IMG/VR virus record: IMGVR_UViG_3300010365_001539
Location: 76-64,075 of that record
Strand: one strand, 5' to 3'
Origin: a virus
Taxonomy: Duplodnaviria > Heunggongvirae > Uroviricota > Caudoviricetes
DNA length: 64,000 nt
Shown here: positions 2,989 to 58,359 of the stretch, piece by piece
How the letters are laid out: every line of letters starts with the position of its first letter
Position numbering within the stretch: the stretch's first letter is position 1
Notes under the pieces: model-generated
The model's input: only the letters and a program-made list of their open reading frames with translations
Databases searched by the model: none
Told to the model about the DNA's origin: nothing
Position numbers and translations under genes: made by a program

Positions 2989-5046
2989 ATGAAAAATTTT
3001 CTTACATTACTTACAATTTTCTTAACATCAATTACATTTGGACAAGTTGACACTACTAAAGTAAACACTTTAGATGAAGTTACTGTTACAGCATCAAGAT
3101 TCAAATTAGAATCTGCTTCAGCAAAAACTATTAAAATGGATTCTGTTAAAACTTATCATGCACAAGAAACTCCTTATTTCTTCTCAACAACTCCATCAGT
3201 AGTTGCTCAGAGTGATAATGGTACTCCTTTTGGATATTCTTATTTTACTCTAAGAGGTATGGGTCAAAATCGTATCAACTATACATTAAATGGTGTTCCA
3301 TTAAATGATGGTGAAGATTTAGCAGTTTATACTTCTAATTATACTGACTTACTTAATAGTTTACGTTCTGTTCAAATCACCAGAGGTGCAGGTGTATCTG
3401 CAAATGGTTCAAGTTCTTATATTGGTTTAGTTAATATGGATTTAACAAGTCCATTTGATACTAAATCTGGTGAGTTTACATCTATGTTAGGTAGTTTTAA
3501 CTCAAGAAAGACATCTGTAAAAGTAAATACTGGTGTTAGTAAAAAAGGATTTGGTGCAACTTTTAGAGCATCAGAAACTTATACAGATGGATTTAGAGAC
3601 TTTTCATCTGGTAAAAGTCAATCTTTCTCAACATCTTTAGGATATAGAACAGAATATACATCAATTAGATTTAATGTTGTTTTTGGTAAAACTAAAAATG
3701 GTCAAGCATGGTTACCTGTCCCAGAAGGACTACCTGTTACAACAAATATCTTAGCAACTGCTTTTGGAATTAAACCACAATATGATGATTTTACAAGTGG
3801 TATCTATCAGTTACAAGTTGCTGGTAAATTCTCTGAACAAACTATATTCAATTTGAGTACTTACTTTACTCATGTTGATGGCAATTATGATATGCCTGCT
3901 TTTAGTGAAAACTATCCAGATAATACAAATAACTTAAAACTTAACTCAGCAAATTGGGGTGCATACTATAATGTTAAACACACAAGTAATGGTTTTACAA
4001 TTGAGCCAGGATTTACACTTAATTCATATTCAAGAAAACACACAGGAACAACAGATGGTGTATTTCAATATGATAATTTGGGAGAGAAATTTGATGCAAC
4101 TGCATTCACAAAAGCATCTTATAAATTAGGATTAGATTGGACAATTGAAGGTGACTACCAATTTAGAAGTACTTCTTTTACATATAAAAATGAATCTGAA
4201 AATTTTGGTGCTAAACTATATGAATATAACTTTCATAATTATTCCTTTGGATTGTCATACAGAGGTAATGATGTATTTAAACCTTATATAAGTTTTGGAA
4301 AATCTTCAAGAGAACCAAGTAGAACAAACTTACTATTTAAACTAGATAATACACCAAATAATTATGTAACTGATGGAACAACAATATCAACTGATAATAT
4401 ATCAAACCAGTCACAAATATCAAACACAAAATATGAAACTGTTAGAGATTTAGAAGTAGGTACTAAAATCAATTCTAAGTATATAAATGGATCTTTTAAT
4501 ACATACTATATGTATTTTAATAATGAAATTGTATCTATTGGTCAATTAAACTCAATGGGTATAGCATTAGGAACTAATGCTGATAAAAGTTATAGAGTAG
4601 GATTTGAAGGTGATTTAACATTAAAATTGAAAAAAATAGAAGTAGGAACAACATTTAATTTTTCCAAAAATAAAGTTTGGTTAGATGATGTAAAATCAGA
4701 ACCAGTATTGACACCTAACTTCATATCTAACTTATTTATAGACTATAATATTGGTAAGCTAAGCATTGGAACAAATTATAAATATGTTACACAATCATTT
4801 TTAGATAATAGTAATACATTCATCTGTCCAGAATATCACTTGGTAGATGCACATATTGGTTATAAATTCAAATCTGGTATATTGTTAAACCTATTTGTAA
4901 ATAATTTATTGAATAAAAATTGGACAACTGGTGGTAGTGTAGGATATCCTACAAATCCTGATGGTAGTAGTGCAGGAGATCCTTATAGACAATTTTACTA
5001 CACTGCAGGAACTAATACTTACTTAACACTAAACTATAAGTTCTAA
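2989..5046 (+). CDS. TonB-dependent receptor-like outer-membrane beta-barrel protein
   Basis: Signal peptide is followed by a TonB-box-like DEVTVTASR. Plug-domain-like motifs are present (FTLRGMGQNRINYTLNGVPLND, ITRGAGVSANGSSSYIGLVNM). The protein is long, beta-rich and aromatic-rich, and ends in a terminal Phe (…LNYKF), as TonB-dependent receptors do. Confidence 0.7.
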   Translation: MKNFLTLLTIFLTSITFGQVDTTKVNTLDEVTVTASRFKLESASAKTIKMDSVKTYHAQETPYFFSTTPSVVAQSDNGTPFGYSYFTLRGMGQNRINYTLNGVPLNDGEDLAVYTSNYTDLLNSLRSVQITRGAGVSANGSSSYIGLVNMDLTSPFDTKSGEFTSMLGSFNSRKTSVKVNTGVSKKGFGATFRASETYTDGFRDFSSGKSQSFSTSLGYRTEYTSIRFNVVFGKTKNGQAWLPVPEGLPVTTNILATAFGIKPQYDDFTSGIYQLQVAGKFSEQTIFNLSTYFTHVDGNYDMPAFSENYPDNTNNLKLNSANWGAYYNVKHTSNGFTIEPGFTLNSYSRKHTGTTDGVFQYDNLGEKFDATAFTKASYKLGLDWTIEGDYQFRSTSFTYKNESENFGAKLYEYNFHNYSFGLSYRGNDVFKPYISFGKSSREPSRTNLLFKLDNTPNNYVTDGTTISTDNISNQSQISNTKYETVRDLEVGTKINSKYINGSFNTYYMYFNNEIVSIGQLNSMGIALGTNADKSYRVGFEGDLTLKLKKIEVGTTFNFSKNKVWLDDVKSEPVLTPNFISNLFIDYNIGKLSIGTNYKYVTQSFLDNSNTFICPEYHLVDAHIGYKFKSGILLNLFVNNLLNKNWTTGGSVGYPTNPDGSSAGDPYRQFYYTAGTNTYLTLNYKF

Positions 5047-5441
5047 TGGACAAGAATAAGATTGTTAATAGTTTTGATATATTTGATAAATATGGTGATA
5101 TTGAAAAATTTCACCATTTATTAGAAAGTAAATTTGAAAAATATGAAAATACAATCACAGTAAATATGGGCTCATTCAAATACCCAAACTATGTTAAGAA
5201 AAAAGTTCCAGGTATTGCAGATAACTCAATCTATCTAATTGCAGAAGATGATTATTTTAGATTAATCTATGACAAAGGAATTGCAATGTTTGACTTAACA
5301 ATTAGAAAAGGACTATTAGTGAGTGAGTCAATAAAATTATCATCATCACTAACTAAAAATAAAGAAGATTTAACAAGAGTAATTGAATTATTAATTCACA
5401 AATTAAATGAACCAAGTAGAAATAATAGCAGTAGTCTTTAG
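5046..5441 (+). CDS. hypothetical protein
   Basis: 131-aa ORF with an ATG overlapping the upstream stop (TAATG). Confidence 0.45.
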   Translation: MDKNKIVNSFDIFDKYGDIEKFHHLLESKFEKYENTITVNMGSFKYPNYVKKKVPGIADNSIYLIAEDDYFRLIYDKGIAMFDLTIRKGLLVSESIKLSSSLTKNKEDLTRVIELLIHKLNEPSRNNSSSL

Positions 5442-5955
5442 TTTATTATCTGTAATCCTTGCAGTTAAAAACAACTTTCTTACATGGCCAGTAGGTATTG
5501 TAGGTGTCATATTCTATGGGATTTTGTTTTATCAAACAAAAACTTGGGGAAATATGTTCCTACAATTTCTCTTTATAGCTCAATCATTATATGGTTGGTA
5601 TAATTGGAAGAAAGATAAAGTAATTCTACCTATTGAGAAATTAGATAAACATGATGTAAATCTATTTGCAATAACAACTGGTTTACTATGTTTCTTTATA
5701 TCATTTGTACTTCTAATGACTGGTGATAAACAACCTTATCTTGATGGTATAACAACAGGATTAAGTATAGTTGGAACTTTATTATTAGCATTCAAAAAAA
5801 TAGATAATTGGTATTATTGGATAGCAGCAGATGTACTTTACATTTATTTATTTTATTCTCAGGGACTTTATTGGTCAACTGGAATATATTTTGTATTTTT
5901 GTTACTTGCAATATCAGGATTAAAAACATGGAATATGTCCTTAAAGAAGAGGTAA
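5407..5955 (+). CDS. pnuC: nicotinamide riboside transporter PnuC
   Basis: Multi-pass membrane protein with PnuC-like motifs (LYGWYNWKK, NWYYWIAADVLYIYLF) and the right size (182 aa). Confidence 0.8.
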   Translation: MNQVEIIAVVFSLLSVILAVKNNFLTWPVGIVGVIFYGILFYQTKTWGNMFLQFLFIAQSLYGWYNWKKDKVILPIEKLDKHDVNLFAITTGLLCFFISFVLLMTGDKQPYLDGITTGLSIVGTLLLAFKKIDNWYYWIAADVLYIYLFYSQGLYWSTGIYFVFLLLAISGLKTWNMSLKKR

Positions 5956-5990: not shown

Positions 5991-6836
5991 ATGTATATAA
6001 AAGAAAGTGAAATTGTTAAAATTACAATATCTGATATAAGTAAAACAAAGTGGGAGAAAAAAATAGGTAAAAAAATTGAAGGAAATGAGATTGAAGTACA
6101 CTGGACTCTTCTAAAAGGATCAACATTTAGAACCATATCTATAAATTTAATATGTGATGATTGTAATATAATTCATAAAAGACGTATAAGAGATTTAGAT
6201 GTAGAAAGTAATATACATTATTGTAATAAATGTTTTAATAAAGGTAAAAGAAATGGTAACTTTGGCAAACCTTGTTCAGAAAAATCTAAAGAGGGTACAA
6301 AAAAATTTATGGAGTTAAATGGTAATCCATTTACCTGGGAAAGTAGTAAAATAAAAATAAGAGAGGCAAAACCTTGGGAAAAAGCACATAGTGCAAATAC
6401 TGGAAGTAAAAGAAGTGAAGAGGTTAAAACTAAAATGAGTGAGTCTGCAATTCTTGCTTTTAAAGAAGGTCGTAGAAGTCCTGGTAGTGGTTGGGCAAGA
6501 ATACATACAAAAGAATATAAAGGATTGGACTATCAAAGTAAATATGAACTAAAGTTTATACAATATTTGGAATCTAAAGGTAAATTAGATATTATTGAAA
6601 AAGGACCAACAATTCCTTACTTTGATATGAATGGTAAAGAACATATGTATTTCAGTGATTTTAAAATAAAAAACACAAATATAATATTTGAAATAAAATC
6701 TTGGTATTATTGGGAAAAAAACAAAGAAATAAATATCATAAAAAAAGAAACCGCTTCAAAAATATATGATTTTTATTTAATAATGGACAACAACTTTTCA
6801 GACATTGATAAACTAATTGAAAATGAAAAAATATAA
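5991..6836 (+). CDS. homing-endonuclease-like protein with an N-terminal Cys cluster, three NUMOD3-like repeats and a possible C-terminal PD-(D/E)xK-like region
   Basis: Three repeats resemble the NUMOD3 DNA-binding motif: NGNFGKPCSEKSKEGTKKF, NGNPFTWESSKIKIREA and HSANTGSKRSEEVKTKMSES. A Cys cluster CDDCN...YCNKC is present. The C-terminal segment ...YFSDFKIKNTNIIFEIKSWYYW could be a D...EIK nuclease motif. The gene sits between pnuC and nadR. Confidence 0.5.
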   Translation: MYIKESEIVKITISDISKTKWEKKIGKKIEGNEIEVHWTLLKGSTFRTISINLICDDCNIIHKRRIRDLDVESNIHYCNKCFNKGKRNGNFGKPCSEKSKEGTKKFMELNGNPFTWESSKIKIREAKPWEKAHSANTGSKRSEEVKTKMSESAILAFKEGRRSPGSGWARIHTKEYKGLDYQSKYELKFIQYLESKGKLDIIEKGPTIPYFDMNGKEHMYFSDFKIKNTNIIFEIKSWYYWEKNKEINIIKKETASKIYDFYLIMDNNFSDIDKLIENEKI

Positions 6837-7833
6837 AAATTCACTTGCCTTAATGAAGGCATACCCACCTCACTTAGGTCACTTATACCTAATTGATACT
6901 GCTATAGAAAATAGTGAGCATACTCATGTAGTTATCTCACATAATAAATCTCAGACAATACCTGGTGAAATCAGATTTAATTGTTTAAAAGAAATCTATA
7001 AAGATAATCCTAATGTAACTGTATATAACTTTGATGATACAGGACTTCCTCAATATGATTATGAATGTAAAACTCTTGATGAATTCTACTCTTATTGGGT
7101 TCCAGAAATCTATAAATTAGTTGATGGATTAGATGCAGTATTTACATCTGAAAGTTATGGTGATGATTTTGCTAAATATCTTGGTGTAGAACACTTTTTA
7201 GTTGATAAGGAAAGAACTACATACCCTGTATCAGGAACTGCCATTAGAACCAATACTTTTGATAAATGGGACTATATACCTCAACAAATAAAACCATACT
7301 TTGTGAAAAGAATTGCCATAATGGGTCCAGAATCTGTTGGTAAATCTACAATGACCAGAGAACTGGCAAATTGGTATCAAACTAATTTTGTTGATGAATA
7401 TGGTAGAACAGTTTATGAAGCTAATGGTAATAAAGTAACTCATGAAGATTTTATAACAATTTCAGTTGGTAGACAATCATTAGAAGATTGGAATCTTAAA
7501 AAATCAAATAAATTATTATTCTGTGATACAGAGGATATAACAACATATCTTTTCTTAAAGATGTATTGTGATGATTGGACTAAAGAAGAAGACCAGTGGT
7601 TCTTAAAAACACTCTCAGAGAAGAAACCATATGATTTGTATATCTTATTGAAACCAGATTTTGAAGGAGTACAAGATGGTACAAGAAGTTTTCTTGAAAT
7701 AAGACAAGAACATTATGAAACTATTAGAGAAGAATTAGTATTAAGAGGTTGTAATTTCATAGAAGTTGGTGGAGATTGGAAAGAAAGATTTGAAGAGTGT
7801 AAAAGAAATATAGAATTAAATTTTAATATATAA
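6817..7833 (+). CDS. nadR: bifunctional NMN adenylyltransferase / ribosylnicotinamide kinase (NadR-like, without the HTH domain)
   Basis: The N-terminal nucleotidyltransferase motif YPPHLGHLYL is the (H/T)xGH motif. A Walker-A GPESVGKST lies in the C-terminal kinase half. Overall NadR architecture, immediately downstream of pnuC. Confidence 0.85.
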   Translation: MKMKKYKNSLALMKAYPPHLGHLYLIDTAIENSEHTHVVISHNKSQTIPGEIRFNCLKEIYKDNPNVTVYNFDDTGLPQYDYECKTLDEFYSYWVPEIYKLVDGLDAVFTSESYGDDFAKYLGVEHFLVDKERTTYPVSGTAIRTNTFDKWDYIPQQIKPYFVKRIAIMGPESVGKSTMTRELANWYQTNFVDEYGRTVYEANGNKVTHEDFITISVGRQSLEDWNLKKSNKLLFCDTEDITTYLFLKMYCDDWTKEEDQWFLKTLSEKKPYDLYILLKPDFEGVQDGTRSFLEIRQEHYETIREELVLRGCNFIEVGGDWKERFEECKRNIELNFNI

Positions 7834-13874: not shown

Positions 13875-16076
13875 TTAATTTTGTGTACCTTGTATTACCA
13901 AAGTTGCTTTTGTTATTGTTGAAACTGAGTCAACATTAAAACGTATTATATCACCAGAATTGATAGTTGTTGTCCAACCTGTTAAAGTTGAACTTTGATT
14001 TTTTATAACTGATGATAATGTTGGTTTAGCAGAACCTGTTATAGTATCTGATTGTGTTGCAGGATAATTAGCATAAGTATCTTTCCAAACATCTATTACA
14101 ATTGAGCCAACCTGGTCTGCAATCAAAGTCCAAGAACTTATAGTCATTGAATAAGGAATAACAATGTCTCCTTGAACACCTGTTGTTATAATCGAACCAG
14201 CACCATCAATAGTAATACCAAAACTTCTTTCTATCTGAGGTGTAGAACCAGTTGCACCAGCAGGACCTGTTGGACCAGTTGGACCAGTTGGACCAATTAA
14301 ACCATCTGCACCTGTAGCACCTTGTGGTCCAGCAGATAATGATGTATCAACTAATTGATTACCATTTACTCTACCAATTACATCTTGAGTTGTTAATTCA
14401 TCTGGTAAATCACCTAAAAAGAACCAACCATCTTGGTCTCTATCAACAACACTTATTTGAGTATTCTTTACAGTTGTATTTGCTTGGTAGAAATAACTTG
14501 AACCACCATCATAGTTATCTGTTCCTCCTTGTGATGCATTATTATCATATAACATATTATAGTTATACGAATTAGTTATAGTACAAGAACCAATAGCAGA
14601 ACCATTATCTAATTTATATTTTGTTAATGTTGATTTTGTTATACTTAATGTAGAAAATTCTGAGTTATTATCTAAATCAAAATAAGATAGCTCACAACTT
14701 TCATAAAAGTCTGTTTTGTTTATAAGTGATGTGTTATTTAGTGTTACATACTTAAACATTAAATCACCATAAGCAACTATATCATTTATTTTAGAACCAT
14801 TATCTAATGTTATATTAGTCATAATAGTTTTACTATTAACACTAATCCTATACATATAAGACTGGTTATTTAATATAACATTATCTTGAGATATACCATC
14901 AAAGTTTATATTGTTGTTATATGAATTTGTAATTCTTTGATTTCCAATTCCCTCAAATCTTTGCTTATCTAAGTTATATGTAAATCCTTTACCCCATTGA
15001 AAAGCTTTTATAGGACAATAATCACCAGTTTCATTTTGTATCTTCTTTAATTCATCATAGTTAAATGAAACCTCGTTTATATTCTTCTCGTTTCTATAAA
15101 CAATTTTATTATTATCTATATCATATTTTATTTTATCATAAGATATATTATAATTTTCATTATCATATAGTATTAATTCCCACTCTTCATTTAACTCATA
15201 GTCACTATTTGCAGAACCTACATTTCCATTTTTGTTTTTCCAAACATAACCACCCCATATAACTCTATCATCTATATTATATGAACCAGTAAATTGCCAT
15301 ATACCAAAATCTCTATATTTAGGTGTATAGAATATACCTGTACCAAATGTATCTAATTTATTATTTTCTAATGCTAATAAGTATATAGTTGAACCCTTAC
15401 CTTCATTACCATAACCATATAATAATCTATCTACATCAACAATTTTATATGTAACACCTCTTATTAATCTTCTATCAGCAATTAGTGTTAATATATTACC
15501 TAAGTTTGTATATATAATGTTTATTTCATCCGGTATTACAACTTCACCACCTAAACTATCAACTAAAGTTAAAGTATTATCACTTGGAGTAAAATAACCA
15601 CTTACAATAGGATTACCAGGTCCCGTAGGTCCTGTAACACCTTGAATACCTTGAATACCTTGAGGTCCAGTTGAACCTGTTGTTCCTCTTGGTCCAGTTG
15701 CTCCAACTGGTCCTTGGATACCCTGAGGTCCTGTTGCACCAGTAACACCTTGACTTCCAGTTGGACCTGTAACACCTTGACTTCCAGTTGAACCTGTAAC
15801 ACCTTGACTTCCAGTTGAACCTGTAACACCTTGACTTCCAGTTGGACCTGTAACACCTTGACTTCCAGTTGGACCTGTAGCACCTTGACTTCCAGTTGGT
15901 CCTGTAGCACCTTGACTTCCAGTTGGTCCTGTAACACCTTGACTACCAGTTGGTCCTGTTGACACACCACCTAAGTCTAATAAATTACCAAATCCATCAT
16001 AATATAAACCACCTACAACTTGAACTAATCTACCATATGTATTTGAGACAGTAAGCCCCGTTAAATTATTACTCAT
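13875..16076 (-). CDS. collagen-like repeat-containing fibre protein
   Basis: About 40 G-X-Y triplets near the N-terminus ([19 protein letters not shown]...). A second G-X-Y run lies near the C-terminus ([28 protein letters not shown]). 733 aa. Confidence 0.75.
15640..15965. repeat. tandem array of ~27-bp repeats (CCTTGACTTCCAGTTGGACCTGTAACA and variants) encoding the collagen-like G-X-Y region
   Basis: Visible periodic near-identical 27-mers between about 15650 and 15960. The antisense ORF 15602..15970 ([12 protein letters not shown] repeats) is an artefact of this array. Confidence 0.8.
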
Positions 16077-18693: not shown

Positions 18694-18893
18694 AAGTATA
18701 TTGTCATGATAATAATTGGTTAGATAAAGAACCTAAACTAACAATTGGTAAGATGTATGAAGTGATTGAAGAAAGAGGACACAATTATTTTCTAATTGAA
18801 AATGATGAAGGTAAAAGAGAAATTTTCCCGAGATCTTGTTTTCAGTACATTGAACAAATGAGAGAAACAAAACTAAGAAAATTAGGAATATGA
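18690..18893 (+). CDS. small protein of the C-terminal KLxxLGI-motif family
   Basis: Starts MKVYC. Contains LTIGKMYEV. Ends MRETKLRKLGI. ATGA overlap on both sides. Confidence 0.5.
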   Translation: MKVYCHDNNWLDKEPKLTIGKMYEVIEERGHNYFLIENDEGKREIFPRSCFQYIEQMRETKLRKLGI

Positions 18894-19360
18894 TAGTTAT
18901 AAAACCAGATAGTTTAGAACAAGAATGTAATATGACATCTGTATTTCTTGCAGGTTCAATTGAAATGGGATTAGCAGAAGATTGGCAAACAAAAACTTCT
19001 GAGTTGTTTAAAGACACTGATGTTACTTTCTTTAACCCAAGAAGAGATGGTTGGGATTCAAGTTGGACTCAAGAAAGAATTAATAAAGAGTTTTCACATC
19101 AAGTGAATTGGGAAATGGATAGTTTAGAAGAGTGTGATATAATCTTTATGAATATATTACCTGGTACAAAAAGTCCAATCACTTTATTAGAACTTGGATT
19201 ACATGCCAACTCTAAAAAGATTATAGTTTGTTGTCCAGATGGATTTTGGAGAAAAGGAAATGTAGAAATTGTTTGTAGTAGATTTAAAATACCTCTTTAT
19301 AACAATTTTGAAGAAGCAGTTGAAAAATTAAAAGATATGATAAAAAATTCCTCTAAGTGA
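18890..19360 (+). CDS. nucleoside 2-deoxyribosyltransferase-like protein
   Basis: N-terminal VFLAGSI. The pattern ...NPRRDGW ... PGTKSPITLLELGLHANSKKIIV is typical of the nucleoside 2-deoxyribosyltransferase (NDT/Rcl) fold. Confidence 0.6.
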   Translation: MIVIKPDSLEQECNMTSVFLAGSIEMGLAEDWQTKTSELFKDTDVTFFNPRRDGWDSSWTQERINKEFSHQVNWEMDSLEECDIIFMNILPGTKSPITLLELGLHANSKKIIVCCPDGFWRKGNVEIVCSRFKIPLYNNFEEAVEKLKDMIKNSSK

Positions 19361-27919: not shown

Positions 27920-29170
27920 ATGAAGATTAATAAATATGAACATTTTCTTTTAGAATCTGTAGTTAATGAACTTATATTAGAAGCAAATATAACATTTAAA
28001 AAAGATTTTATAGAAGTTTTAGATGATATGAAAACAGGATTCCCTGGACCTGTTGATAATATATGTGATGTTCTTTTAGATATGATAGGAACTGATTTAG
28101 ATATAAATCAAAATAATATTGGATTATCAACTGAAACAGACAAAATTACTTTTATACCAGAAGATAAAATTGATCAAGCAAATGTTAAAATAATTAAGAA
28201 TGTAGTTTCTTACTCACAAGATAATGATTTACATCCTGTACAAAAAGAAGCTAAACTTCCTACAGAAGGAATGATATTCATAGAAGTAGAAAATTTCTTA
28301 GAAAATGATATTATAAATAGTTGGAAAATAATCAAAACCATTAATATGGCAATAGTTCCAGATTCTAACTATAATGATTGTATATTATACTACTTACAAA
28401 ATACTGATGATCCTACTAAATTTACAACAATATTTCAATACAGTAATAAACCAAATGATATGCCTTATGAATATATTTTACCTGAAAATAAAATGGGTAA
28501 AATTAAAATAGGTAGATATGTAAATAGATTATTAGATTTAGAGTTCAAAGGTGACCAAAGAAAAGAATACACTGCATCAGATGTTGAACAATTCACCAAT
28601 AAATTTATTAGTACAGTTGAATATAAACTAAAAGCACTTGACCATTTCAGAATAATTTCAGGTGGTGAAATTAAACATTGGTATCTATTGGATAATTATG
28701 CAGGAAAAACAGGACAATTAGGACAATCTTGTATGAAATATTCACATTGTCAAGAATTTTTTGATATTTATCTTGATAATCCTGAGGTATGTAAATTATT
28801 AATCTTTACTGATCCAAAAGATAAATTACTAGGTAGAGCACTTCTTTGGAAATTAGAAAATGGTACTAATTATATGGATCGTATCTACACAACCAGAGAT
28901 TCTAATATAGATTTATTTATTAAGTGGGGTAAAGAAAATGGGTATACCAAATATTATGAAAGAACATCAAATAATAAACTTTCTGTAAAGGTTGAATCAA
29001 AAGATTATGCACAATATCCTTTTATGGACACTTTTAAATATTATAAACCAGAAGATGGAATTCTATCAAATAAAGAACTTGAAAAACCTTATTTAGAAAT
29101 ACAAGAACAAAATGGACAAGCTTTAAGAAGAATTGATGGTGAAACTTCAAGAAGACCAGAAGATATGTAA
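27920..29170 (+). CDS. paralog-family A protein
   Basis: C-terminal GRALLWKLENGTNYMDRIYT...YPFMDTFKYY shared with 24571..25701 and 47410..48369. Confidence 0.55.
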   Translation: MKINKYEHFLLESVVNELILEANITFKKDFIEVLDDMKTGFPGPVDNICDVLLDMIGTDLDINQNNIGLSTETDKITFIPEDKIDQANVKIIKNVVSYSQDNDLHPVQKEAKLPTEGMIFIEVENFLENDIINSWKIIKTINMAIVPDSNYNDCILYYLQNTDDPTKFTTIFQYSNKPNDMPYEYILPENKMGKIKIGRYVNRLLDLEFKGDQRKEYTASDVEQFTNKFISTVEYKLKALDHFRIISGGEIKHWYLLDNYAGKTGQLGQSCMKYSHCQEFFDIYLDNPEVCKLLIFTDPKDKLLGRALLWKLENGTNYMDRIYTTRDSNIDLFIKWGKENGYTKYYERTSNNKLSVKVESKDYAQYPFMDTFKYYKPEDGILSNKELEKPYLEIQEQNGQALRRIDGETSRRPEDM

Positions 29171-29221
29171 ACAATTATAATTTTCATTGTATAAATTAAA
29201 AATAATTTATATCTTTGTTAC

Positions 29222-29935
29222 ATGAAAAATTTAATTGAAGTCTTTGAAGATACTAAACAATATACTTTAGATAATAATCTAATTAATAGTAAAACCACTA
29301 AACACACATTCTTAGAAATTGAAACTGCACATGGACTACCAAAGTCTAATATTTCTGTTATAAACTCTGATACAGTATCTGCAGCACTTGATTTTACATT
29401 ACTTGGTAAAACTGCCTTACTTAATATGGCTTCTTATAAAAGACCTGGAGGTGGTGTTAGAAATGGCGCAAGAGCACAAGAAGAATGTTTATTCAGATGT
29501 TCTAATCTATCAGAAGTAATACCTACATCACACTACCTTTTAAAAGAAGATGAATGTCTTTATACAAGTGCAGGAGTTTTCTTTAAAGACTTCAACTATG
29601 ATTACATAACACCAACTGAAATAGATGTAATCACTATACCAGCCATTAACCTAAATGGATTTGAACTAACTAATATCAAACAATACATTAAGACTAATAA
29701 AGACAAAATTAGATTGATGTTATCATTAGCAATCAAAAATGAAGTAAAGAATATTATCTTAGGTGCTTGGGGTTGTGGAGTATTTAAAAACAATCCAGTT
29801 CAAATTGCTACTTTCTTTAAAGAAGTTTTAGATGAAGGTTACAATTCATACTTTGATAATGTTGTATTTGCAATTATCAATGACCACAATTCAGTAGATA
29901 ATAATTTAGAAATCTTTAAATCAATCTTACAATGA
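29222..29935 (+). CDS. macrodomain / bacterial PARG-like (TIGR02452-like) ADP-ribose-processing protein
   Basis: LNMASYKRPGGGVRNGARAQEECLFRCSNL and GAWGCGVFKNNP match the signature motifs of the TIGR02452 (DUF2263) macro/PARG-like family by recall. Confidence 0.65.
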   Translation: MKNLIEVFEDTKQYTLDNNLINSKTTKHTFLEIETAHGLPKSNISVINSDTVSAALDFTLLGKTALLNMASYKRPGGGVRNGARAQEECLFRCSNLSEVIPTSHYLLKEDECLYTSAGVFFKDFNYDYITPTEIDVITIPAINLNGFELTNIKQYIKTNKDKIRLMLSLAIKNEVKNIILGAWGCGVFKNNPVQIATFFKEVLDEGYNSYFDNVVFAIINDHNSVDNNLEIFKSILQ

Positions 29936-30327
29936 AACCAGGAGAAAGCTTAGTTATAATGGGATTCTTAGTAGTTATGTTACTAATATTATTTATATTA
30001 GGTTACTTTGCAAGAAGATGTTCCACAAAAGAAAAATTCATATTCTCTCAGAAAATTAAAAACATAAATTGGAGAAAAACTTTTAAGTATTGGTTTTTTA
30101 TTCAAGGGTTTATGTTACTTGGTAGTATGGGTAATAACAATATGTACTGGTATGAGATTGTTGGTCTACCACTTATTGTAATGTTATTAATATTTGTAAA
30201 TGGTCTTGGTGTAAATACTAATAAAGAATATGGTGAATTAGTAAGAACTAAAGACTTTGAAGATTGGGAGAAAGTAGAAGAAAGAGATAAGAAATTAAAA
30301 AAGATATTAAAAAAGAACATATTCTAA
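29932..30327 (+). CDS. membrane protein
   Basis: 131-aa ORF with three hydrophobic segments. Confidence 0.5.
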   Translation: MKPGESLVIMGFLVVMLLILFILGYFARRCSTKEKFIFSQKIKNINWRKTFKYWFFIQGFMLLGSMGNNNMYWYEIVGLPLIVMLLIFVNGLGVNTNKEYGELVRTKDFEDWEKVEERDKKLKKILKKNIF

Positions 30328-30361: not shown

Positions 30362-30646
30362 ATGAAAACATATCAAGCATCAAAATTGGCATCTGGAGTA
30401 AGTAAAATTTTCCCTCACAAAATTACAATTACTGATAACTCTGTTACAATTACAGAACCAGGATTATTCAGTAATAAAGAAAAAACAATTCCTTTTTCTA
30501 AAATTGCTTCTGTAAATGTAGATTGTCCTATGTTAGGCTTCTCAACAATCAAAATTGAAACTACTGGTAATGATAGTTTAACTATTGTTGGTTTCACTAA
30601 AGATGAAGTAAATGAAATGAAACAAACAATCTTATCTAAAATCTAA
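30362..30646 (+). CDS. small beta-rich protein, possibly bacterial PH-domain-like
   Basis: 94-aa ORF preceded by a TAACTTTG promoter-like element. Confidence 0.4.
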   Translation: MKTYQASKLASGVSKIFPHKITITDNSVTITEPGLFSNKEKTIPFSKIASVNVDCPMLGFSTIKIETTGNDSLTIVGFTKDEVNEMKQTILSKI

Positions 30647-30897
30647 TGTACTTACTTAGTGATCATGGAACTCATGAAATAATGAGTGGTGCAGGTGATG
30701 AGCTTGGTGAAACAATTGAAGCTTGTATCAGATGGTGTGAGTCAAAAGATTGTCAAGTTATTTTACACTTTAATGGTATGAAAAGACATATCAATAAAGG
30801 AACATATGCTAAAGGTTTAACAGATAATTGGTTTGATCCAAAATATGTTTCTTTACAAGATACAAGAGAGAAAAAATTAAATGACTTAGGTATATGA
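30646..30897 (+). CDS. small protein of the C-terminal KLxxLGI-motif family
   Basis: Ends DTREKKLNDLGI. Confidence 0.5.
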   Translation: MYLLSDHGTHEIMSGAGDELGETIEACIRWCESKDCQVILHFNGMKRHINKGTYAKGLTDNWFDPKYVSLQDTREKKLNDLGI

Positions 30898-36679: not shown

Positions 36680-36910
36680 ATGAAAATCTCCCATATAATA
36701 TGTATGGGAGATTCAAGAACTAAATATTATGATGATTGGGATGATTACAGAGATTTCTGTGATTCATTGAAAATACAACCTAAAGATGATTTCTATACAC
36801 ATCAAAGAGAACTACTGAATGAATTAGGTTTTAAACACCTAAATGAATACTATGAAAATCTTAGAACTATTGAAGTAAGAGATAAGAAGATTAATCAAAT
36901 TCTGGATTAA
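36680..36910 (+). CDS. hypothetical protein (ends RDKKINQILD)
   Basis: 76-aa ORF. Confidence 0.45.
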   Translation: MKISHIICMGDSRTKYYDDWDDYRDFCDSLKIQPKDDFYTHQRELLNELGFKHLNEYYENLRTIEVRDKKINQILD

Positions 36911-37451
36911 TATCATCAAATGGTTCAACTAAATCAATATCTTCTTCCTCTATTAAGTGGTCAATTACTTGTCTTTGAATAGACTCCATTCTTTTTCTTG
37001 CTTTATTCAATGGGAAAAATTTAATATTATAAATTTCCTCTTCACCTAAAACTCTTTTCATAGTTTTATTTCTCAATACTAAACTATTAGGTTTTAAATA
37101 CTTTGCAAAATCCTCCCTTGTCTTATGATAAACAAAAACTTCTAACTCTTTAGTAATACCACTCTTTCTATAGTTTACTATAAATTTATAATCATAACGT
37201 CTGTCCAATTTAATACCAGCTTCTTCTTTAAGCTCTTTAAGTGCAGATGTTAAAGAGTTTCTACCTTCAATGTGTCCTTTAGGTAAAGACCATTTTACTC
37301 TTGAATGTTTGAACTTATCTGGTAATACTAATAGAATATTATCATCTACTAAAACTGCTACACCTGATAGTTTGTTTACTTTTTCCTGTTTGAATGCTTC
37401 AAATAATTTTAACCAAATCATAAAACTATATATTAAAGTTTGTTTATTCAA
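36891..37451 (-). CDS. Nudix hydrolase
   Basis: Nudix box GHIEGRNSLTSALKELKEEAGI (G-x5-E-x7-[RK]-E-x2-EE-x-G-I). Preceded by the beta-strand region VAVLVDDNILLVLP. Confidence 0.7.
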   Translation of the reverse strand: MNKQTLIYSFMIWLKLFEAFKQEKVNKLSGVAVLVDDNILLVLPDKFKHSRVKWSLPKGHIEGRNSLTSALKELKEEAGIKLDRRYDYKFIVNYRKSGITKELEVFVYHKTREDFAKYLKPNSLVLRNKTMKRVLGEEEIYNIKFFPLNKARKRMESIQRQVIDHLIEEEDIDLVEPFDDINPEFD

Positions 37452-42842: not shown

Positions 42843-42914
42843 GGCCCCATCGTCTATCGGTTAGGACGCCAGGTTTTCATCCTGGAAAGTCGGGTTCGAC
42901 TCCCGGTGGGGCTA
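42843..42914 (+). tRNA. tRNA-Glu (anticodon TTC)
   Basis: Cloverleaf: acceptor GGCCCCA/TGGGGCT, D-arm GTC-TATCGGTTAG-GAC, anticodon stem CCAGG/CCTGG with loop TTTTCAT, T-arm TCGGG-TTCGACT-CCCGG, discriminator A. TATATTTG lies about 75 nt upstream. Confidence 0.65.
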
Positions 42915-43024
42915 CTCCGTTTCTCACAACAGAAGAGTAAAACCACTTAATGATTAGTTGGTGAGGTAACAGCTCACAAAGGTTACTAAGTGCTGAGATA
43001 GGGGTTTCCACCTATTGTTACTCA

Positions 43025-44860: not shown

Positions 44861-45090
44861 AAACTGTTGATGGATATTTAGTTCCAGAAGAACATCTTGA
44901 AATAATTAGAAATACTTGTAAACTACAAAATGGTTTAGACTTTCATATAACTCTTATACAGAAGATGAAAACTGCATATGAAGTAGAAGGTACTTATAAT
45001 GGTATTGATCGATTATACACTGCTGAAATTGAATTTGATTATATTAAAACAGAAATTAGAAATAATAGAATAAATAAAATATTAGAATGA
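44857..45090 (+). CDS. hypothetical protein (ends IRNNRINKILE)
   Basis: 77-aa ORF. Confidence 0.45.
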   Translation: MKTVDGYLVPEEHLEIIRNTCKLQNGLDFHITLIQKMKTAYEVEGTYNGIDRLYTAEIEFDYIKTEIRNNRINKILE

Positions 45091-45509
45091 AAGTCATATT
45101 TACAGACATTGATGGTGTGTTAAATCCTCACTGGAAAACCAAGTGGAGTAAGTCTGCTATATCAATATACAATCAAATCTGTCAGGAATATGATTTAAAA
45201 CCTGTAATTAGTTCTACTTGGAGAATTAACCATACAAAAGAACAATTACAAAAGATATTTGATGAACAAGGTATTGAAGTGGAAATCTATGATTATACAC
45301 CACATCTTGACCAAAAAGACAGAGGATTAGAGATAAAAGAGTGGTTAAACAACAATAAAGTTGATAATTATGTTGTAATTGATGATATTGTACACAATAT
45401 TACACCTCATGTTGATAATGTAATTAAAGTTAGAAATTGGGTGGGTTTAACCACAGAAGAATATATTGAAATGAAAAAAATATTAGATAATGGCAATGAT
45501 GACAAATAG
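45087..45509 (+). CDS. HAD-superfamily phosphatase-like protein
   Basis: N-terminal motif I FTDIDGVLN (DxDG[TV]). A later hhhDD acidic motif (VVIDDIV). Confidence 0.55.
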   Translation: MKVIFTDIDGVLNPHWKTKWSKSAISIYNQICQEYDLKPVISSTWRINHTKEQLQKIFDEQGIEVEIYDYTPHLDQKDRGLEIKEWLNNNKVDNYVVIDDIVHNITPHVDNVIKVRNWVGLTTEEYIEMKKILDNGNDDK

Positions 45510-46182: not shown

Positions 46183-46539
46183 ATGAAAGATAAAATAGAA
46201 TTTGCAGAGTTTTTAGATATACAATCTAAATTAGAAATTAAAGTAGGTACAATTCAATCAGTAACTGATGTACCTAAATCAGACAAACTTATTAAATTAG
46301 AAATTGACTTTGGTGAAGACCAATTTAGAACTGTTGTAACAAATATTAAACCTTCATTAGGTGAAGATTATGTTGCTAATTTAACAGGCAAAACATTATT
46401 ATTTGTTACTAACTTAAAACCAGTTAAGATGATGGGTATTGAATCAACCGCAATGATTATGCCAGGATTCTATGATGATTGGGCAGGTAGACTATCACTA
46501 TCAACAATACATTCTAAACCAGGACTTTCAATACTATAA
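46183..46539 (+). CDS. tRNA-binding domain protein (Trbp111/CsaA/EMAP-like OB fold)
   Basis: FLDIQSKLEIKVGTIQSV...SDKLIKLEIDFGED...KTLLFVTNLKPVKMMGIESTAMIM matches the tRNA_bind (Myf) domain pattern found in Trbp111, CsaA and the MetRS C-terminus. Confidence 0.6.
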   Translation: MKDKIEFAEFLDIQSKLEIKVGTIQSVTDVPKSDKLIKLEIDFGEDQFRTVVTNIKPSLGEDYVANLTGKTLLFVTNLKPVKMMGIESTAMIMPGFYDDWAGRLSLSTIHSKPGLSIL

Positions 46540-48419: not shown

Positions 48420-49145
48420 ATGAAAATATTTATATTATATGAGGGTAACTTACCCTATTCAGAAAATGCAATGTATGCTGCACTTGGTTTTACCAAAATG
48501 GGTTATGAAGTTATTCCAATCTATGACCTAAGAGAACTTGATGATAATAAAGAACCAGAAGATATTGTCTTTGCAGGAATTGGAAATGTACTTTACAGAT
48601 TAGAAACTCAACTTGGTCTTTCTAAACCAGAAGAGATTTGTTATCCAGAAGAACTAAACTATTTACTTGGTAGAAAAGTTGAAGTAGCTACCTATGCTGA
48701 TATTGTTAATGATCATTCAGAACCTTCATTTATAAAACCTTATGGTACAACTAAATACTTTAATGGTTGTGTAGTTGAACACTTTAGAGATTTACCAGCA
48801 GCTGATTTAACTACAAAGATTTACAAAAGTGAATTGGTTAACTTTGTAACTGAATACAGATGTTTTATTTTAAGAGGTAAAATTATGGGAGCTAAACATT
48901 ATAAAGGTGACTTCTCTGTTGGGTTTGATAGAAAAGTTTTAGAAGAAGCTGTTGAGAAATATACATCTGCACCAATTGCTTATTCACTTGACTTAGGTGT
49001 TGATGAACAAGGTAGAACATTATTAGTTGAGTGTAATGATAGTCACTCAATGGGACACTATGGACTTAATCCATCTTTCTATGCAAGAATGATTTCTGCA
49101 AGATGGGCTCAAATGACAAATACAAAAGATTATTTGGAAGTATAA
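48420..49145 (+). CDS. ATP-grasp fold protein
   Basis: Size and pattern (central ...TEYRCFILRGKIMGAKHYKGD..., C-terminal ...LLVECNDSHSMGHYGL) are consistent with an ATP-grasp enzyme. Preceded by TATATTTG. Confidence 0.45.
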   Translation: MKIFILYEGNLPYSENAMYAALGFTKMGYEVIPIYDLRELDDNKEPEDIVFAGIGNVLYRLETQLGLSKPEEICYPEELNYLLGRKVEVATYADIVNDHSEPSFIKPYGTTKYFNGCVVEHFRDLPAADLTTKIYKSELVNFVTEYRCFILRGKIMGAKHYKGDFSVGFDRKVLEEAVEKYTSAPIAYSLDLGVDEQGRTLLVECNDSHSMGHYGLNPSFYARMISARWAQMTNTKDYLEV

Positions 49146-53551: not shown

Positions 53552-53989
53552 ATGAATAAAATCTACCTTAAACTTAAAACAGATATATCAATACTAGTAG
53601 CAGATGGTTACTGGTCACTTCATTGTGGTGATATGATTGTATTACATAAAATTGGAACCAGAAGTGAAATTAAACGTAATGAATATAAGGCAAATGAATA
53701 TATTCATGAAGATTCTTATTTATTAACTGGATTTGAATATAAAACCATTAAAGATATTAGAACTATGGAATATCATACAGTTTGGAATGAATGCAATTCA
53801 GTTGATACTTTAATAACAATATCTACAGGTAAACCTTTATATCATAGTAGAACTTATAACTATTATGATATACTACAACTAACTAAATCAAATACACCAT
53901 TAGTTGACAAGTTTAGATATGATGATATATTTGAAGATGTATCAACCCCATATAACAGAGAAAATAAATTAGAAGAAATATTACAATGA
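53552..53989 (+). CDS. hypothetical protein (ends NRENKLEEILQ)
   Basis: 145-aa ORF. Confidence 0.45.
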   Translation: MNKIYLKLKTDISILVADGYWSLHCGDMIVLHKIGTRSEIKRNEYKANEYIHEDSYLLTGFEYKTIKDIRTMEYHTVWNECNSVDTLITISTGKPLYHSRTYNYYDILQLTKSNTPLVDKFRYDDIFEDVSTPYNRENKLEEILQ

Positions 53990-54405
53990 AAAACTTTCTA
54001 CCATATAAAGAATCAATTGCTATGAAAGAAATAGGTTTTGATGAACCTTGTTTAGGTGCTTGGAGTAATATTGACAACAAACCTGAATTTTCTTATAATA
54101 AGAAACCAACCAAGTACTCTAAAATGTTTACTAAGAAATCACCACATTGTGTTGCACCTTTATACCAAGAAGCATTTGACTGGTTCACTGAACAAGGTTT
54201 ATTCTCATATGTTGATAGAACCTATACAAATGGTAAATATGAATATGAATTTCATATTGAAGGTAATAGTGGTTTATTTGGATTTGAAACTAAAAAACTG
54301 GCAGAACAAGCATGTATACGTTCTTTAATATCTATATTGAGAATGGATAAAAATTATATGAAGAAATTAAATAGAGATAACAAATTAAATGAATTAGGAA
54401 TATGA
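53986..54405 (+). CDS. C-terminal motif family protein (ends NRDNKLNELGI)
   Basis: 139-aa ORF. Confidence 0.45.
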   Translation: MKNFLPYKESIAMKEIGFDEPCLGAWSNIDNKPEFSYNKKPTKYSKMFTKKSPHCVAPLYQEAFDWFTEQGLFSYVDRTYTNGKYEYEFHIEGNSGLFGFETKKLAEQACIRSLISILRMDKNYMKKLNRDNKLNELGI

Positions 54406-58007: not shown

Positions 58008-58359
58008 AATAGAATTATACTTAGTTAAATCAAGCTCAGGTTCCTATGATGATTATAGAGAATCCAATGAACCTATTATTTATGCCACCTTAGAAGCAGC
58101 AGAGAAGAGAAAACAAGAAATAATTGATGCACATAAAGTAGAACCATTTCCACTTGATTGGTGTACTGAACAAGAGTTTGACGAACTTAGATATGATGAT
58201 GAAGTAAAGAGAAGTAAGATAACTAATGAACATATAGAAATTGTTGATCAATGGGAAATGGAAAATCATTATGCACAAGACTTTGGATCAGCTTGGGTAC
58301 AAACTATTGAATTAGATATGCAAAGCTGGAGAGAAAGGCAATTAAATGGACTTATCTAA
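58000..58359 (+). CDS. hypothetical protein (ends WRERQLNGLI)
   Basis: 119-aa ORF. Confidence 0.45.
   Translation: MNKIELYLVKSSSGSYDDYRESNEPIIYATLEAAEKRKQEIIDAHKVEPFPLDWCTEQEFDELRYDDEVKRSKITNEHIEIVDQWEMENHYAQDFGSAWVQTIELDMQSWRERQLNGLI

Follow-up and report, generated by a model that had tools for sequence, protein, structure and literature searches.

The phage gene analyzed here encodes a 237-aa protein that is apparently a catalytically competent, stand-alone PARG of the bacterial (microbial) type, and we regard the chances as about even that, during infection by a huge phage, this enzyme strips ADP-ribose (ADPr) from RNA or other nucleic acid ends or from PAR-like chains. The observations behind this reading are the family membership of the protein, its fold, an intact and conserved active site, a virus-specific clade and the recurrent adjacency of its relatives in other phages to RNA-repair genes; the activity, the substrate and the biological role are what we infer. 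Throughout, the window denotes the whole stretch of DNA that was analyzed (64,000 nucleotides), from a phage whose host is probably a member of the Bacteroidota.

Family assignment, fold and active site

The reading frame opens with an ATG, given in the ORF list and read directly in the DNA. This start is supported by the homologues, which begin with the same methionine (alignment A1), and the TGA stop shares nucleotides with the start codon of the following ORF (ATG at position 29932). The protein matched TIGR02452 at 128.6 bits (E = 3.1e-37; cut-off, 50) and PF10021 at 71.4 bits (E = 1.4e-19; cut-off, 23.5). Searches against PDB sequences returned PARGs as the sole matches, with D. radiodurans PARG (DrPARG) at 2e-23 and T. 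curvata PARG (TcPARG) at 3.5e-17 in phmmer, and with DrPARG as the best sequence match (E = 8e-41) in a profile search. The first-pass annotation had placed the protein in the DUF2263/TIGR02452 macro-PARG family on the strength of two motifs; both are present exactly (NMASYKRPGGGVRNGARAQEECLFRCS, residues 68 to 94, and GAWGCGVFKNNP, residues 181 to 192), the membership is borne out, and, as judged from these searches, the family assignment is far beyond chance.

Neighboring families gave a different picture. The canonical eukaryotic-type PARG model PF05028 reached 16.7 bits against a threshold of 26.3, over residues 166 to 192 only, a sub-threshold match that arises from the diphosphate-loop stretch; the protein is related to canonical PARG but is not a member of that family. 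PF01661 (Macro; MacroD-type/Appr-1''-p processing) gave no match at E ≤ 1. The PHROGs search returned no family, PHROGs being without coverage of the phage PARG clade, and the only match among the PADLOC models was to PDC-S20 (E = 0.0025; 15.3 bits; 80 residues), which does not identify the protein as a defense component.

TABLE 1. Coordinates of the PARG gene, its functional residues and a possible promoter element in the window
Feature	Position	Strand	Basis
Bacterial-type (microbial) PARG CDS, TIGR02452/PF10021/DUF2263, 237 aa	29222..29935	+	ORF list, HMM scores, PDB sequence matches, AF2 model and Foldseek
PARG signature GGG-x7-QEE (G76 G77 G78 VRNGARA Q86 E87 E88)	29447..29485	+	Read from sequence; aligned to DrPARG GGGFLGGAQAQEE
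Diphosphate-binding loop G181-A-W-G-C-G-V-F188	29762..29785	+	Read from sequence; F188 is the equivalent of TcPARG F227
Asn228, ribose-cap position, corresponding to DrPARG Thr267/TcPARG Arg268	29903..29905	+	Profile alignment anchored at H222=H262 and F232=F271
TATCTTTG, match to the Bacteroidota -7 element TAnnTTTG, possible own promoter	29210..29217	+	Consensus match only

Both a macrodomain fold and the catalytic Glu/Gly residues, on which the first-pass annotation had made its claim depend, were found. The AlphaFold (AF2) model of the protein (pLDDT, 84.8; pTM, 0.87) shows a macrodomain core preceded by a helix at residues 4 to 17, that is, an N-terminal helical extension, with lower confidence in the catalytic-loop regions (pLDDT of about 62 to 63). 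The top PDB matches in Foldseek were the bacterial-type PARGs 3sih (T. curvata; TMq, 0.83; E = 3.9e-16) and 5zdb (D. radiodurans; TM, 0.77), followed by canonical PARGs (TMq of 0.56 to 0.64 against human or mouse PARG) and then by generic macrodomains (0.45 to 0.5); MacroD2 and YmdB, with a TMq of 0.45 to 0.50, do not place the protein among MacroD-type enzymes.

The bacterial-type family is defined by the signature GGG-X6-8-QEE, with two consecutive Glu residues of which the second is catalytic (PMC8120803 Table 2), and in the phage protein X equals 7. E88 aligns with the Glu assigned as catalytic in bacterial-type PARGs (PMC6445106, PMC8120803), namely, E112 of DrPARG and E115 of TcPARG, and the diphosphate-binding loop aligns to GAWGCGVF of DrPARG, including its conserved aromatic residue. 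G76 to G78, Q86, E87 and E88 are invariant in alignments A1 and A4, as are G181, A182, G184, C185 and G186, while position 188 is F or Y (A4). The invariance of catalytic and ligand-binding residues holds over 18 to 28 sequences, from 95% down to 32% identity, and the active site is, on this comparative evidence, under selection.

At the ribose cap, TcPARG carries a C-terminal Arg268 that is ion paired with Asp261, lies over the adenosine 2'-OH and determines exo-only action (PMC6445106). In the sequence alignment, this column holds Asn228, not Arg, and the Asn is invariant in A4, which sets the phage protein apart from the TcPARG-type obligate exo-glycohydrolase subtype. The enzyme would therefore resemble DrPARG at the ribose cap and, with Asn228 in place of the Arg268 cap, can probably cut within chains as well as at their ends.

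Viral relatives and gene neighborhoods

The phage setting assumed in the first-pass annotation agrees with the distribution of relatives, which are encoded by at least 296 IMG/VR viral contigs, mostly of 100 to 675 kb, and have no counterpart above 46% identity in cellular genomes; by sequence comparison, the PARG clade is virus specific. The window protein is part of a freshwater clade that has members at 82 to 95% identity, and a megablast search with 20 kb around its gene gave no DNA match in a reference phage collection. Other phage homologues are A0A8D9C9L8 ('Gp114 [uncultured marine phage]'; 51% identity; TM, 0.90), LR756502.1 (48%), Lak phages (33 to 36%) and Bacillus phage G gp114 (32%). 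Members of the same 90% clusters already carry the JGI label 'TIGR02452 family', and UniProt holds giant-virus 'Microbial-type PARG catalytic domain-containing proteins'; for phages and giant viruses alike, microbial-type PARG annotations already exist, the homologue calls being at the level of automatic annotation.

Gene context was compared over 38 dereplicated viral lineages (283 neighbor ORFs), by gene rank ±1 or ±2 from the PARG homologue. The PARG gene directly adjoins an RNA-repair or ADPr-processing gene in 8 of the 38 lineages, the partners at rank ±1 being RNA ligase (L012), RlaP (L016), Metallophos and NUDIX (L019), HAD_SAK_2 (L071), NUDIX (L010), Thg1 (L045), HD (L027) and R2K ATP-grasp (L013). 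Once the discovery members were set aside, direct adjacency was seen for 3 of 12 family members (0.67 expected; p = 0.026) and a position no more than 2 genes away for 5 of 12 (1.33 expected; p = 0.007). These statistics are modest; the families were partly chosen for adjacency, and phage auxiliary genes cluster anyway. Control families were not adjacent (DHFR, 0/6; P-loop kinase, 0/3). No recognizable partner was present within ±2 genes in 30 of the 38 lineages, no ART, PARP, Tpt1 or DarT recurred among the matches listed for the 283 neighbor ORFs, and NADAR was among the near neighbors in one lineage. The flanks in the window and in a close relative, L001 (82% identity), share almost nothing, and therefore there is no conserved operon; nor was a strongly conserved partner seen among 80 bacterial loci, in 50 of which the PARG ORF was recovered by crude ORF calling. 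The adjacency to RNA-repair genes in phages parallels the ligase-PARG-HD/Pnkp operon of D. radiodurans (PMC11833690), and it favors de-ADP-ribosylation of RNA or nucleic acid ends.

In the window itself, the PARG gene stands alone, its immediate neighbors (a 416-aa multicopy paralogue, a small membrane protein, a bPH_2 protein and an SPFH protein) not being RNA-repair genes. Elsewhere, the window carries a NARP3-like PnuC and NadR pair together with NUDIX, HAD_SAK_2, tRNA_bind and R2K genes, and therefore the phage invests in NAD+/ADPr and RNA-repair conflict. No ART, PARP, Tpt1/KptA or DarT family was detected among the window ORFs of at least 90 aa, although divergent phage ARTs may escape Pfam. 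The 416-aa ORF upstream, which was considered as a writer partner, has no Pfam, PADLOC or PDB match; it was rejected, since it belongs to a multicopy family (7 to 15 places per genome in 635- to 735-kb uncultured phages by tblastn) and in LR756502.1 is separated from the PARG homologue by about 40 kb.

Proposed activity and competing explanations

If the protein behaves as its family does, ADP-ribose would bind in the macrodomain cleft via the GAWGCGVF diphosphate loop, and Glu88 of the GGG-x7-QEE loop would promote the attack of water on C1'' of the distal ribose, yielding free ADP-ribose. The linkages cut would be (i) ribose(1'')-O-ribose(2') bonds, as in poly-ADP-ribose and RhsP2-type 2'-OH ADPr-RNA, and (ii) ADPr on 5' or 3' terminal phosphates of RNA or DNA, and N-glycosidic base adducts and Glu/Ser mono-ADPr would be left intact. 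Among characterized enzymes, SCO0909 and DRB0099 act on PAR, RhsP2 2'-OH RNA-ADPr and 5'/3'-phosphate ADPr, with mutation of the catalytic Glu abolishing all of these activities (PMC11833690), and DrPARG does not remove Glu/Ser mono-ADPr (PMC6445106). During infection, the enzyme would remove ADPr placed by host ADP-ribosyltransferases (toxins or defense effectors) on RNA or nucleic acid ends, or PAR-like chains, as part of the phage repertoire for RNA repair and NAD+/ADPr counterdefense, and the freed ADP-ribose could go to phage Nudix degradation or recycling. ADP-ribosylating toxins, one of the candidate targets in the first-pass annotation, are plausible in this role, specifically for ADPr on RNA 2'-OH groups or phosphate ends.

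Why bacteria keep bacterial-type PARGs is a standing question, since a PARP is known in only a minority of their carriers. The conserved active site, the hundreds of huge-phage contigs and the repeated RNA-repair adjacency support the proposal that such enzymes protect nucleic acids from ADP-ribosylating toxins, a proposal that would thereby be extended to phage-host conflict. More specifically, although we hold this to be rather unlikely, the virus-specific clade could be a dedicated counterdefense against immunity based on ribose(1'')-O-ribose(2') linkages, either (i) repairing phage or host RNA that bears ADPr, added by a defense ADP-ribosyltransferase, at 2'-OH groups or terminal phosphates, together with RNA ligase, RlaP, Thg1 and phosphoesterase healing and sealing or (ii) linearizing 1''-2' glycocyclic ADPR. 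Either activity, if true, would give a phage PARG its first assigned biological function and would imply an undescribed RNA-ADP-ribosylating or PAR-making defense in Bacteroidota-type hosts; that phage macrodomains act against ADPr chemistry is, as a general idea, already published. At 237 aa, the protein is a compact candidate to be tried against ADPr-RNA, ADPr-DNA ends and cADPR isomers and in ART-defense screens.

Degradation of soluble NAD+-derived immune signals or toxic metabolites, for example Thoeris-type 1''-2' glycocyclic ADPR, would silence signaling-based defense and is, in our estimate, unlikely as the function of the enzyme. The chemistry would suit it, as the intramolecular ribose(1'')-O-ribose(2') bond of 1''-2' glycocyclic ADPR should be the same linkage that PARGs cut, and the PnuC/NadR pair and NUDIX gene of the window point to a phage exposed to NAD+-directed immunity. 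NUDIX genes are directly adjacent in two lineages (L010 and L019), and NADAR is nearby in one. On the other hand, ADPr adopts an extended pose in PARG, its leaving group belonging to another unit, and a strained cyclic monomer may not fit; we found no report in the literature of cADPR-isomer cleavage by any PARG-type enzyme, and signal degradation leaves the RNA ligase, RlaP, Thg1 and HAD_SAK_2 neighbors unexplained. NADase-derived signaling products, which the first-pass annotation had also named, are an existing prediction for phage macrodomains in general, and Macro domains occur in about 56% of jumbo phages (Iyer et al. 2022, PMC9503650).

It is quite improbable that the enzyme is the eraser half of a phage circuit, removing or tuning (poly-)ADP-ribosylation that ART or PARP-like enzymes of the phage itself had placed on host or phage proteins. 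ARTs are common in jumbo phages and PARP-like enzymes occur in a few (PMC7824862), some bacteria encode PARGs alongside PARPs, often together with MacroD (PMC8120803), and in Bacillus phage G the PARG-type gp114 lies 3.4 kb from the Appr-1-p/MacroD-type gp122. A writer is what the surveyed loci fail to supply: neither the ORFs of the 64-kb window nor, as a recurrent neighbor, the matches listed for the 38 lineages include an ART or PARP family, and the multicopy upstream ORF is not a dedicated partner.

Reversal of DarT-type ADP-ribosylation of phage DNA, put forward in the first-pass annotation, is very unlikely, since the PARG-type enzymes characterized so far hydrolyze ADPr in ribose-ribose or phosphate linkage and leave N-glycosidic base adducts alone. 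DarT makes adducts of this N-glycosidic type (at thymidine N3 or guanosine N2), and ADPr on thymidine or guanosine is reversed by DarG/TARG1-type macrodomains or NADAR. The idea draws on the fact that this is a phage-borne macrodomain ADPr hydrolase and that DarTG is a known anti-phage system (PMC11833690), but macrodomain hydrolases, the bacterial-type PARG SCO0909 included, are inactive on guanosine-ADPr (PMC11833690), and in a fly hydrolase set that included Parg only TARG1-type enzymes were active on T-ADPr (PMC12879935). Phage anti-DarT factors described so far are DarG-like macrodomains or NADAR (PMC11481870, PMC11825919, PMC13309987). DarG/TARG1-type enzymes and their phage mimics (AdfB-like, chimallivirus DarG2-like) share with the window protein the macrodomain superfamily and, as phage-encoded counterdefense ADPr erasers, a general purpose; they differ in macrodomain class and catalytic apparatus and target thymidine-linked DNA ADPr, and no DarG/TARG1 structure appeared in the top 50 Foldseek PDB matches, nor any such family in the top sequence matches, PF01661 included. 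Equally remote is the possibility that the protein reads ADP-ribose without catalysis or that its gene is a decaying passenger that contributes nothing to infection, for which the differing neighbors at 82% identity might speak, but against which stand the invariant catalytic and ligand-binding residues, the retention of the gene in at least 296 viral contigs and an intact ORF of conserved start and length.

Relation to known systems and local features of the window

The substrate model with the best experimental support for a PARG that protects RNA on its own, as a de-ADP-ribosylase, is SCO0909 of Streptomyces coelicolor (PMC11833690), which belongs to the same DUF2263 family as the phage protein; it is, however, cellular, and the evidence for its role in immunity to an exogenous toxin comes from heterologous protection rather than from phage infection. 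DrPARG (DRB0099; PDB 5ZDA to 5ZDG) has in common with the phage protein the GGG-x7-QEE signature, the GAWGCGVF(R/K)N(D/N)P loop and a small uncharged ribose-cap residue, and its gene lies between those for an RNA/DNA ligase and HD-Pnkp, as several phage homologues adjoin RNA ligase, RlaP, HD or Metallophos. The two differ in that identity is only about 26% by structural alignment, the 237 aa of the phage protein compare with a crystallized chain of 251 to 255 residues, an insertion of ~12 residues after the catalytic helix is missing from the phage protein, and the phage gene is viral and outside any repair operon in the window. TcPARG (PDB 3SIG and 3SIH), the founding bacterial-type PARG structure and the top Foldseek match, shares the macrodomain core and N-terminal helix, its E114, E115 and F227 being equivalent to E87, E88 and F188, whereas it is longer (277 aa, with a longer N-terminal extension) and has the Arg268 cap where the sequence alignment places an invariant Asn in the phage clade. 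The viral PARGs in databases (phage G gp114, A0A8D9C9L8, Lak megaphage, LR756502.1 and giant viruses) have family and fold in common with the window protein, which is distinguished by its freshwater clade, one that is without a DNA-level counterpart in the reference phage collection.

At the left edge of the window, a 'Mqo fragment' was considered as a bacterial/prophage junction and rejected, since its frame runs off the window and phage-style small ORFs follow directly. The possible promoter element of the PARG gene (Table 1) ends 4 nt before the ATG, and 16 of 98 gene starts have its consensus in the preceding 60 nt, compared with 6.5 ± 2.5 at random positions.

Family, fold, and active site of the phage PARG

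The PARG open reading frame (ORF) was found by ORF listing and direct reading of the DNA exactly as the first-pass annotation had described it, its translation containing both quoted peptides, NMASYKRPGGGVRNGARAQEECLFRCS (residues 68 to 94) and GAWGCGVFKNNP (residues 181 to 192); the start Met of its ATG is common to homologues in the alignment, and the ATG of the next ORF (29932) overlaps its stop codon. Membership of the macro-PARG/TIGR02452 family was confirmed by hmmscan, in which TIGR02452 scored 128.6 bits (cut-off, 50) and PF10021, the microbial-type PARG catalytic domain, 71.4 bits (cut-off, 23.5), the canonical PARG model PF05028 giving only a sub-threshold match confined to the diphosphate loop. 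The only real matches among PDB sequences were the PARGs of Deinococcus radiodurans (DrPARG; 2e-23) and Thermomonospora curvata (TcPARG; 3.5e-17), which improved to 8e-41 and 5e-36, respectively, with a profile of phage homologues. An AlphaFold2 model (28-sequence alignment; mean pLDDT, 84.8; pTM, 0.87), of lower confidence at residues 71 to 90 (catalytic loop), 144 to 148, and 181 to 190 (diphosphate loop), ranked closest in the PDB by Foldseek to TcPARG (3sih; E 3.9e-16; TMq, 0.83), followed by DrPARG entries (TMq, about 0.77), canonical PARGs (0.56 to 0.64), and generic macrodomains (MacroD2, YmdB, and macroH2A; 0.45 to 0.5).

The family signature, GGG-X6-8-QEE with a conserved aromatic residue (PMC8120803), is represented by G76GG-VRNGARA-Q86E87E88 and G181AWGCGVF188, and E88 aligns with the catalytic Glu of DrPARG (E112, the second Glu of QEE according to the mutagenic primer; PMC6445106) and TcPARG (E115). 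The signature residues are invariant across homologue alignments from 95% down to 32% identity, which points to purifying selection on a working enzyme. Both checks proposed in the first-pass annotation, on the macrodomain fold and on the catalytic Glu/Gly residues, thus had a positive outcome, and the protein is very probably a bacterial-type PARG. The ribose-cap column, occupied in TcPARG by Arg268, the determinant of exo-only action, was placed via profile alignment anchored on H222=H262 and F232=F271. Since this column holds Asn228, invariant in 18/18 aligned sequences, the phage clade appears to be without the Arg cap and to resemble DrPARG, which has Thr267 at this position and shows endo activity (PMC6445106).

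Viral microbial-type PARGs have been annotated before: members of the clusters to which this protein belongs carry the JGI label 'TIGR02452 family', and BFVD holds 'Gp114 [uncultured marine phage]', which is 51% identical with a TM of 0.90, along with numerous giant-virus entries named 'Microbial-type PARG catalytic domain-containing proteins' and a 'TIGR02452 family protein' from Siphoviridae. The concept of phage macrodomains countering ADP-ribose (ADPr) chemistry is also in print (PMC7824862, PMC9503650). Our analysis adds a highly conserved, apparently virus-specific PARG clade of huge phages, the predicted absence of the Arg ribose cap from it, and a recurrent yet modest linkage to RNA-repair genes.

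Distribution of the clade and probable host of the phage

The phage context claimed in the first-pass annotation stands on several lines of evidence: ORFs are short, densely packed, and mostly co-directional; 20 PHROG families were matched in a scan of 77 ORFs; and the reference phages with a homologue by tblastn are huge phages only, namely, LR756502.1 (642 kb; 48% identity), Lak megaphages (33 to 36%), and Bacillus phage G (gp114; 32%). The G+C content is 26 to 33% throughout. Homologues of 82 to 95% identity come from freshwater metagenomes, on contigs no longer than 101 kb, and those of about 60% from contigs of 527 to 643 kb; all are embedded in phage-like runs of very small genes that include T4_Y16D, HNH, RNA ligase, and DHFR. 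A degenerate-pattern scan of IMG/VR found 296 viral contigs encoding a PARG relative; among the 80 matches listed, 49 contigs are at least 200 kb and 68 at least 100 kb long. In two IMG/VR contigs (L086 and L087) with a PARG relative by tblastn, the standard code yielded no intact ORF, which may reflect a frameshift or stop-codon reassignment, the latter being reported for some huge gut phages. The best cellular match among 185,579 species-representative genomes (46% identity) lies on contig JAVTWD010000016.1 (L089; 375,071 bp), assigned to a 'Bacteroidota bacterium' MAG; its layout of short co-directional ORFs is phage-like, and it probably represents a huge phage wrongly placed in a bacterial bin. 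Since all clearly bacterial homologues are at most 38% identical, homologues sharing at least 50% identity appear to form a virus-specific clade.

TAnnTTTG is the -7 promoter box of Bacteroidota. It occurs within 60 nt upstream of 16 of 98 gene starts, against 6.5 +/- 2.5 at random positions (maximum of 15 in 1000 trials), an enrichment that supports a Bacteroidota-like host transcription apparatus, and a Bacteroidota-type host can reasonably be inferred. The TonB-dependent receptor is compatible with such a Gram-negative host; it sits inside an otherwise phage-like region, and a phage-encoded outer-membrane transporter is odd. It is also unusual that Mqo, a central-metabolism and respiratory gene, adjoins phage-style ORFs; its frame is open from base 2, which rules out a gene fragment and indicates an intact gene cut by the left edge of the window.

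Features of the window
Feature	Position	Strand	Details
Malate:quinone oxidoreductase (Mqo)	2-892	+	PF06039, E 1.4e-91, profile positions 294-489
TonB-dependent receptor	2989-5046	+	685 aa; Plug plus beta-barrel, E 3e-21 and 2.5e-9
PnuC-like nicotinamide-riboside/NMN transporter	5407-5955	+	PF04973, E 2e-45; phrog_1880
ORF between PnuC-like and NadR-like genes	5991-6836		weak DUF7487 match
NadR-like bifunctional enzyme	6817-7833	+	cytidylyltransferase-like NMNAT N-terminus plus AAA_28 kinase, E 2.5e-27
Collagen triple-helix repeat protein	13875-16076	-	733 aa; E 1.4e-20; possibly fibre or structural protein
Nucleoside 2-deoxyribosyltransferase-like protein	18890-19360	+	
416-aa ORF	27920-29170	+	directly upstream of PARG; multicopy paralogue
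TAnnTTTG copy	29210-29217		consensus match just before PARG ATG
PARG	29222-29935	+	237 aa
Small membrane protein	29932-30327		flanks PARG
Tag-bearing ORFs (examples)	30646-30897, 53986-54405, 58359-58784, 59099-59470, 60632-60922, 60919-61191		
NUDIX hydrolase	36891-37451	-	
tRNA-Glu(UUC)	42843-42915		the one tRNA found
HAD_SAK_2	45087-45509	+	'Swiss Army Knife' RNA-repair HAD domain
tRNA-binding domain protein	46183-46539	+	
R2K-clade ATP-grasp ligase	48420-49145	+	
GIY-YIG plus 3x NUMOD3 homing endonuclease	56060-56986	+	resembles T4 SegE

Gene neighbourhood

The 416-aa ORF had no match in Pfam, PADLOC, or PDB sequences; by tblastn, its family occupies 7 to 15 places per genome in the 635- to 735-kb uncultured phages LR756501-LR756504 and LR745206 and is single copy in Cellulophaga phages phi38:1, phi40:1, and Calle. 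Neither this ORF nor the membrane, bPH_2, and SPFH/Band-7 proteins also flanking PARG in the window show an obvious connection with ADPr chemistry. The flanks are entirely different among close relatives, so the PARG gene behaves as a stand-alone cassette.

We dereplicated 87 PARG loci into 38 lineages (PARG identity of 80% or more) and examined their neighbours by BLAST clustering, local HMMs from seed sequences, and Pfam scans. Genes adjacent to PARG (rank +/-1) encode HNH-RNA ligase (L012), RlaP (L016), HAD_SAK_2 (L071), NUDIX (L010), Thg1 (L045), HD phosphohydrolase (L027; 7 loci), R2K ATP-grasp (L013), and, in L019, Metallophos upstream and NUDIX downstream; two more lineages have HAD_SAK_2 and R2K at rank +/-2. 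This theme of RNA end-healing, sealing, and repair together with ADPr catabolism mirrors the ligase-PARG-HD/Pnkp operon of Deinococcus and agrees with the published idea that NAD+-dependent RNA repair is a task of some phage macrodomains (PMC7824862). Because the partner families were picked after adjacency had been seen, a fair statistic leaves out the discovery members; with these excluded, 3 of 12 family members are adjacent to PARG (0.67 expected; p=0.026) and 5 of 12 lie at most two genes away (1.33 expected; p=0.007), against 0/6 adjacent for DHFR and 0/3 for P-loop kinase as control families. A recognisable partner is absent near PARG in 30 of the 38 lineages, and the signal is real, yet modest.

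Within the window, the PnuC-like and NadR-like genes match the two components of NARP3, a recently described phage NAD+-restoring pathway (PMC13464706). The NUDIX, HAD_SAK_2, tRNA-binding, R2K, and deoxyribosyltransferase-like proteins and tRNA-Glu are further members of this NAD+/ADPr and RNA-repair repertoire. In Bacillus phage G (L169, JN638751.1), gp114, of PARG type (66154-66984), and gp122, annotated as 'Appr-1-p processing domain' (MacroD-type macrodomain; 70350-70829), lie 3.4 kb apart, the same pairing of PARG and MacroD hydrolases as noted in PARP-containing bacteria (PMC8120803).

Candidate substrates and a C-terminal tag family

Bacterial-type PARGs cut the ribose-ribose O-glycosidic bond of PAR. 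SCO0909 of Streptomyces coelicolor and DRB0099 (DrPARG) remove the ADPr installed by RhsP2 on RNA 2'-OH, a linkage chemically equal to that of PAR, as well as ADPr on 5'/3' terminal phosphates of RNA and DNA, and shield cells from RhsP2 toxicity (PMC11833690); Glu- or Ser-linked mono-ADPr is not removable by DrPARG (PMC6445106). We propose that the phage enzyme would strip ADPr joined by a ribose-ribose or a phosphate linkage and would work beside the RNA-repair and NAD+/ADPr counter-defence genes of the phage. Its likeliest physiological targets would be RNA or nucleic-acid ends that host ARTs have ADP-ribosylated during infection, or PAR-like chains made by these ARTs. Taken whole, from activity through linkages to the role in infection, this proposal has in our estimation an even chance of being correct.

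Several alternatives can be considered. One is that the enzyme degrades soluble signals derived from ADPr, for example 1''-2' gcADPR, whose linkage is by our own reasoning of PAR type; such a function has been predicted generically for phage macrodomains (PMC9503650) and agrees with a suggestion of the first-pass annotation, and we regard it as unlikely here. Slightly less likely again is an eraser for an ART or PARP of the phage itself; Pfam scans of window ORFs of at least 90 aa gave no match to an ART, PARP, KptA, or DarT family, and none recurred among PARG neighbours within the best 25 families per bulk scan. Reversal of DarT modification, also suggested earlier, is highly improbable: guanosine-linked ADPr is reversed by NADARs, not by macrodomain hydrolases (PMC11833690), and thymidine-linked ADPr, among the panels tested, by TARG1/DarG-type enzymes alone, Targ1 and Targ3 being the only active fly hydrolases in a set including Parg (PMC12879935), so that base-linked ADPr falls to NADAR or TARG1/DarG rather than PARG-type enzymes. 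To date, the anti-DarT factors on record for phages are DarG-like macrodomains or NADARs (PMC11481870, PMC11825919, PMC13309987). Taken together, these findings make DarT-modified DNA the least probable of the three targets first suggested. An inactive ADPr reader or a passenger gene, set against the invariant active site, is equally improbable.

A C-terminal tag, ...R(E/D)xK(L/I)(N/K)x(L/I)(GI or Lx), typically ...RE(E/D)KL(N/K)QLGI (e.g., REEKLNQLGI*), is carried by at least 24 of the 187 window ORFs of at least 60 aa (20566-61431), all small proteins, and is possibly of greater novelty than the PARG. In all ORF translations, the motif falls within the last 16 residues in 24 of 25 occurrences. 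Its codons vary synonymously (Leu, TTA/CTA/TTG/CTT; Gly, GGT/GGA), so it is conserved as protein and not as a DNA repeat; it may serve as a binding helix common to these proteins, direct their localisation or packaging, or act as a degron. In many tagged ORFs the final codons are ATA-TGA, so that the stop overlaps the following start codon as ATGA, and the tag recurs in the related huge-phage loci L005 (10/65 ORFs), L001 (8/74 ORFs), L004, L007, and L071.
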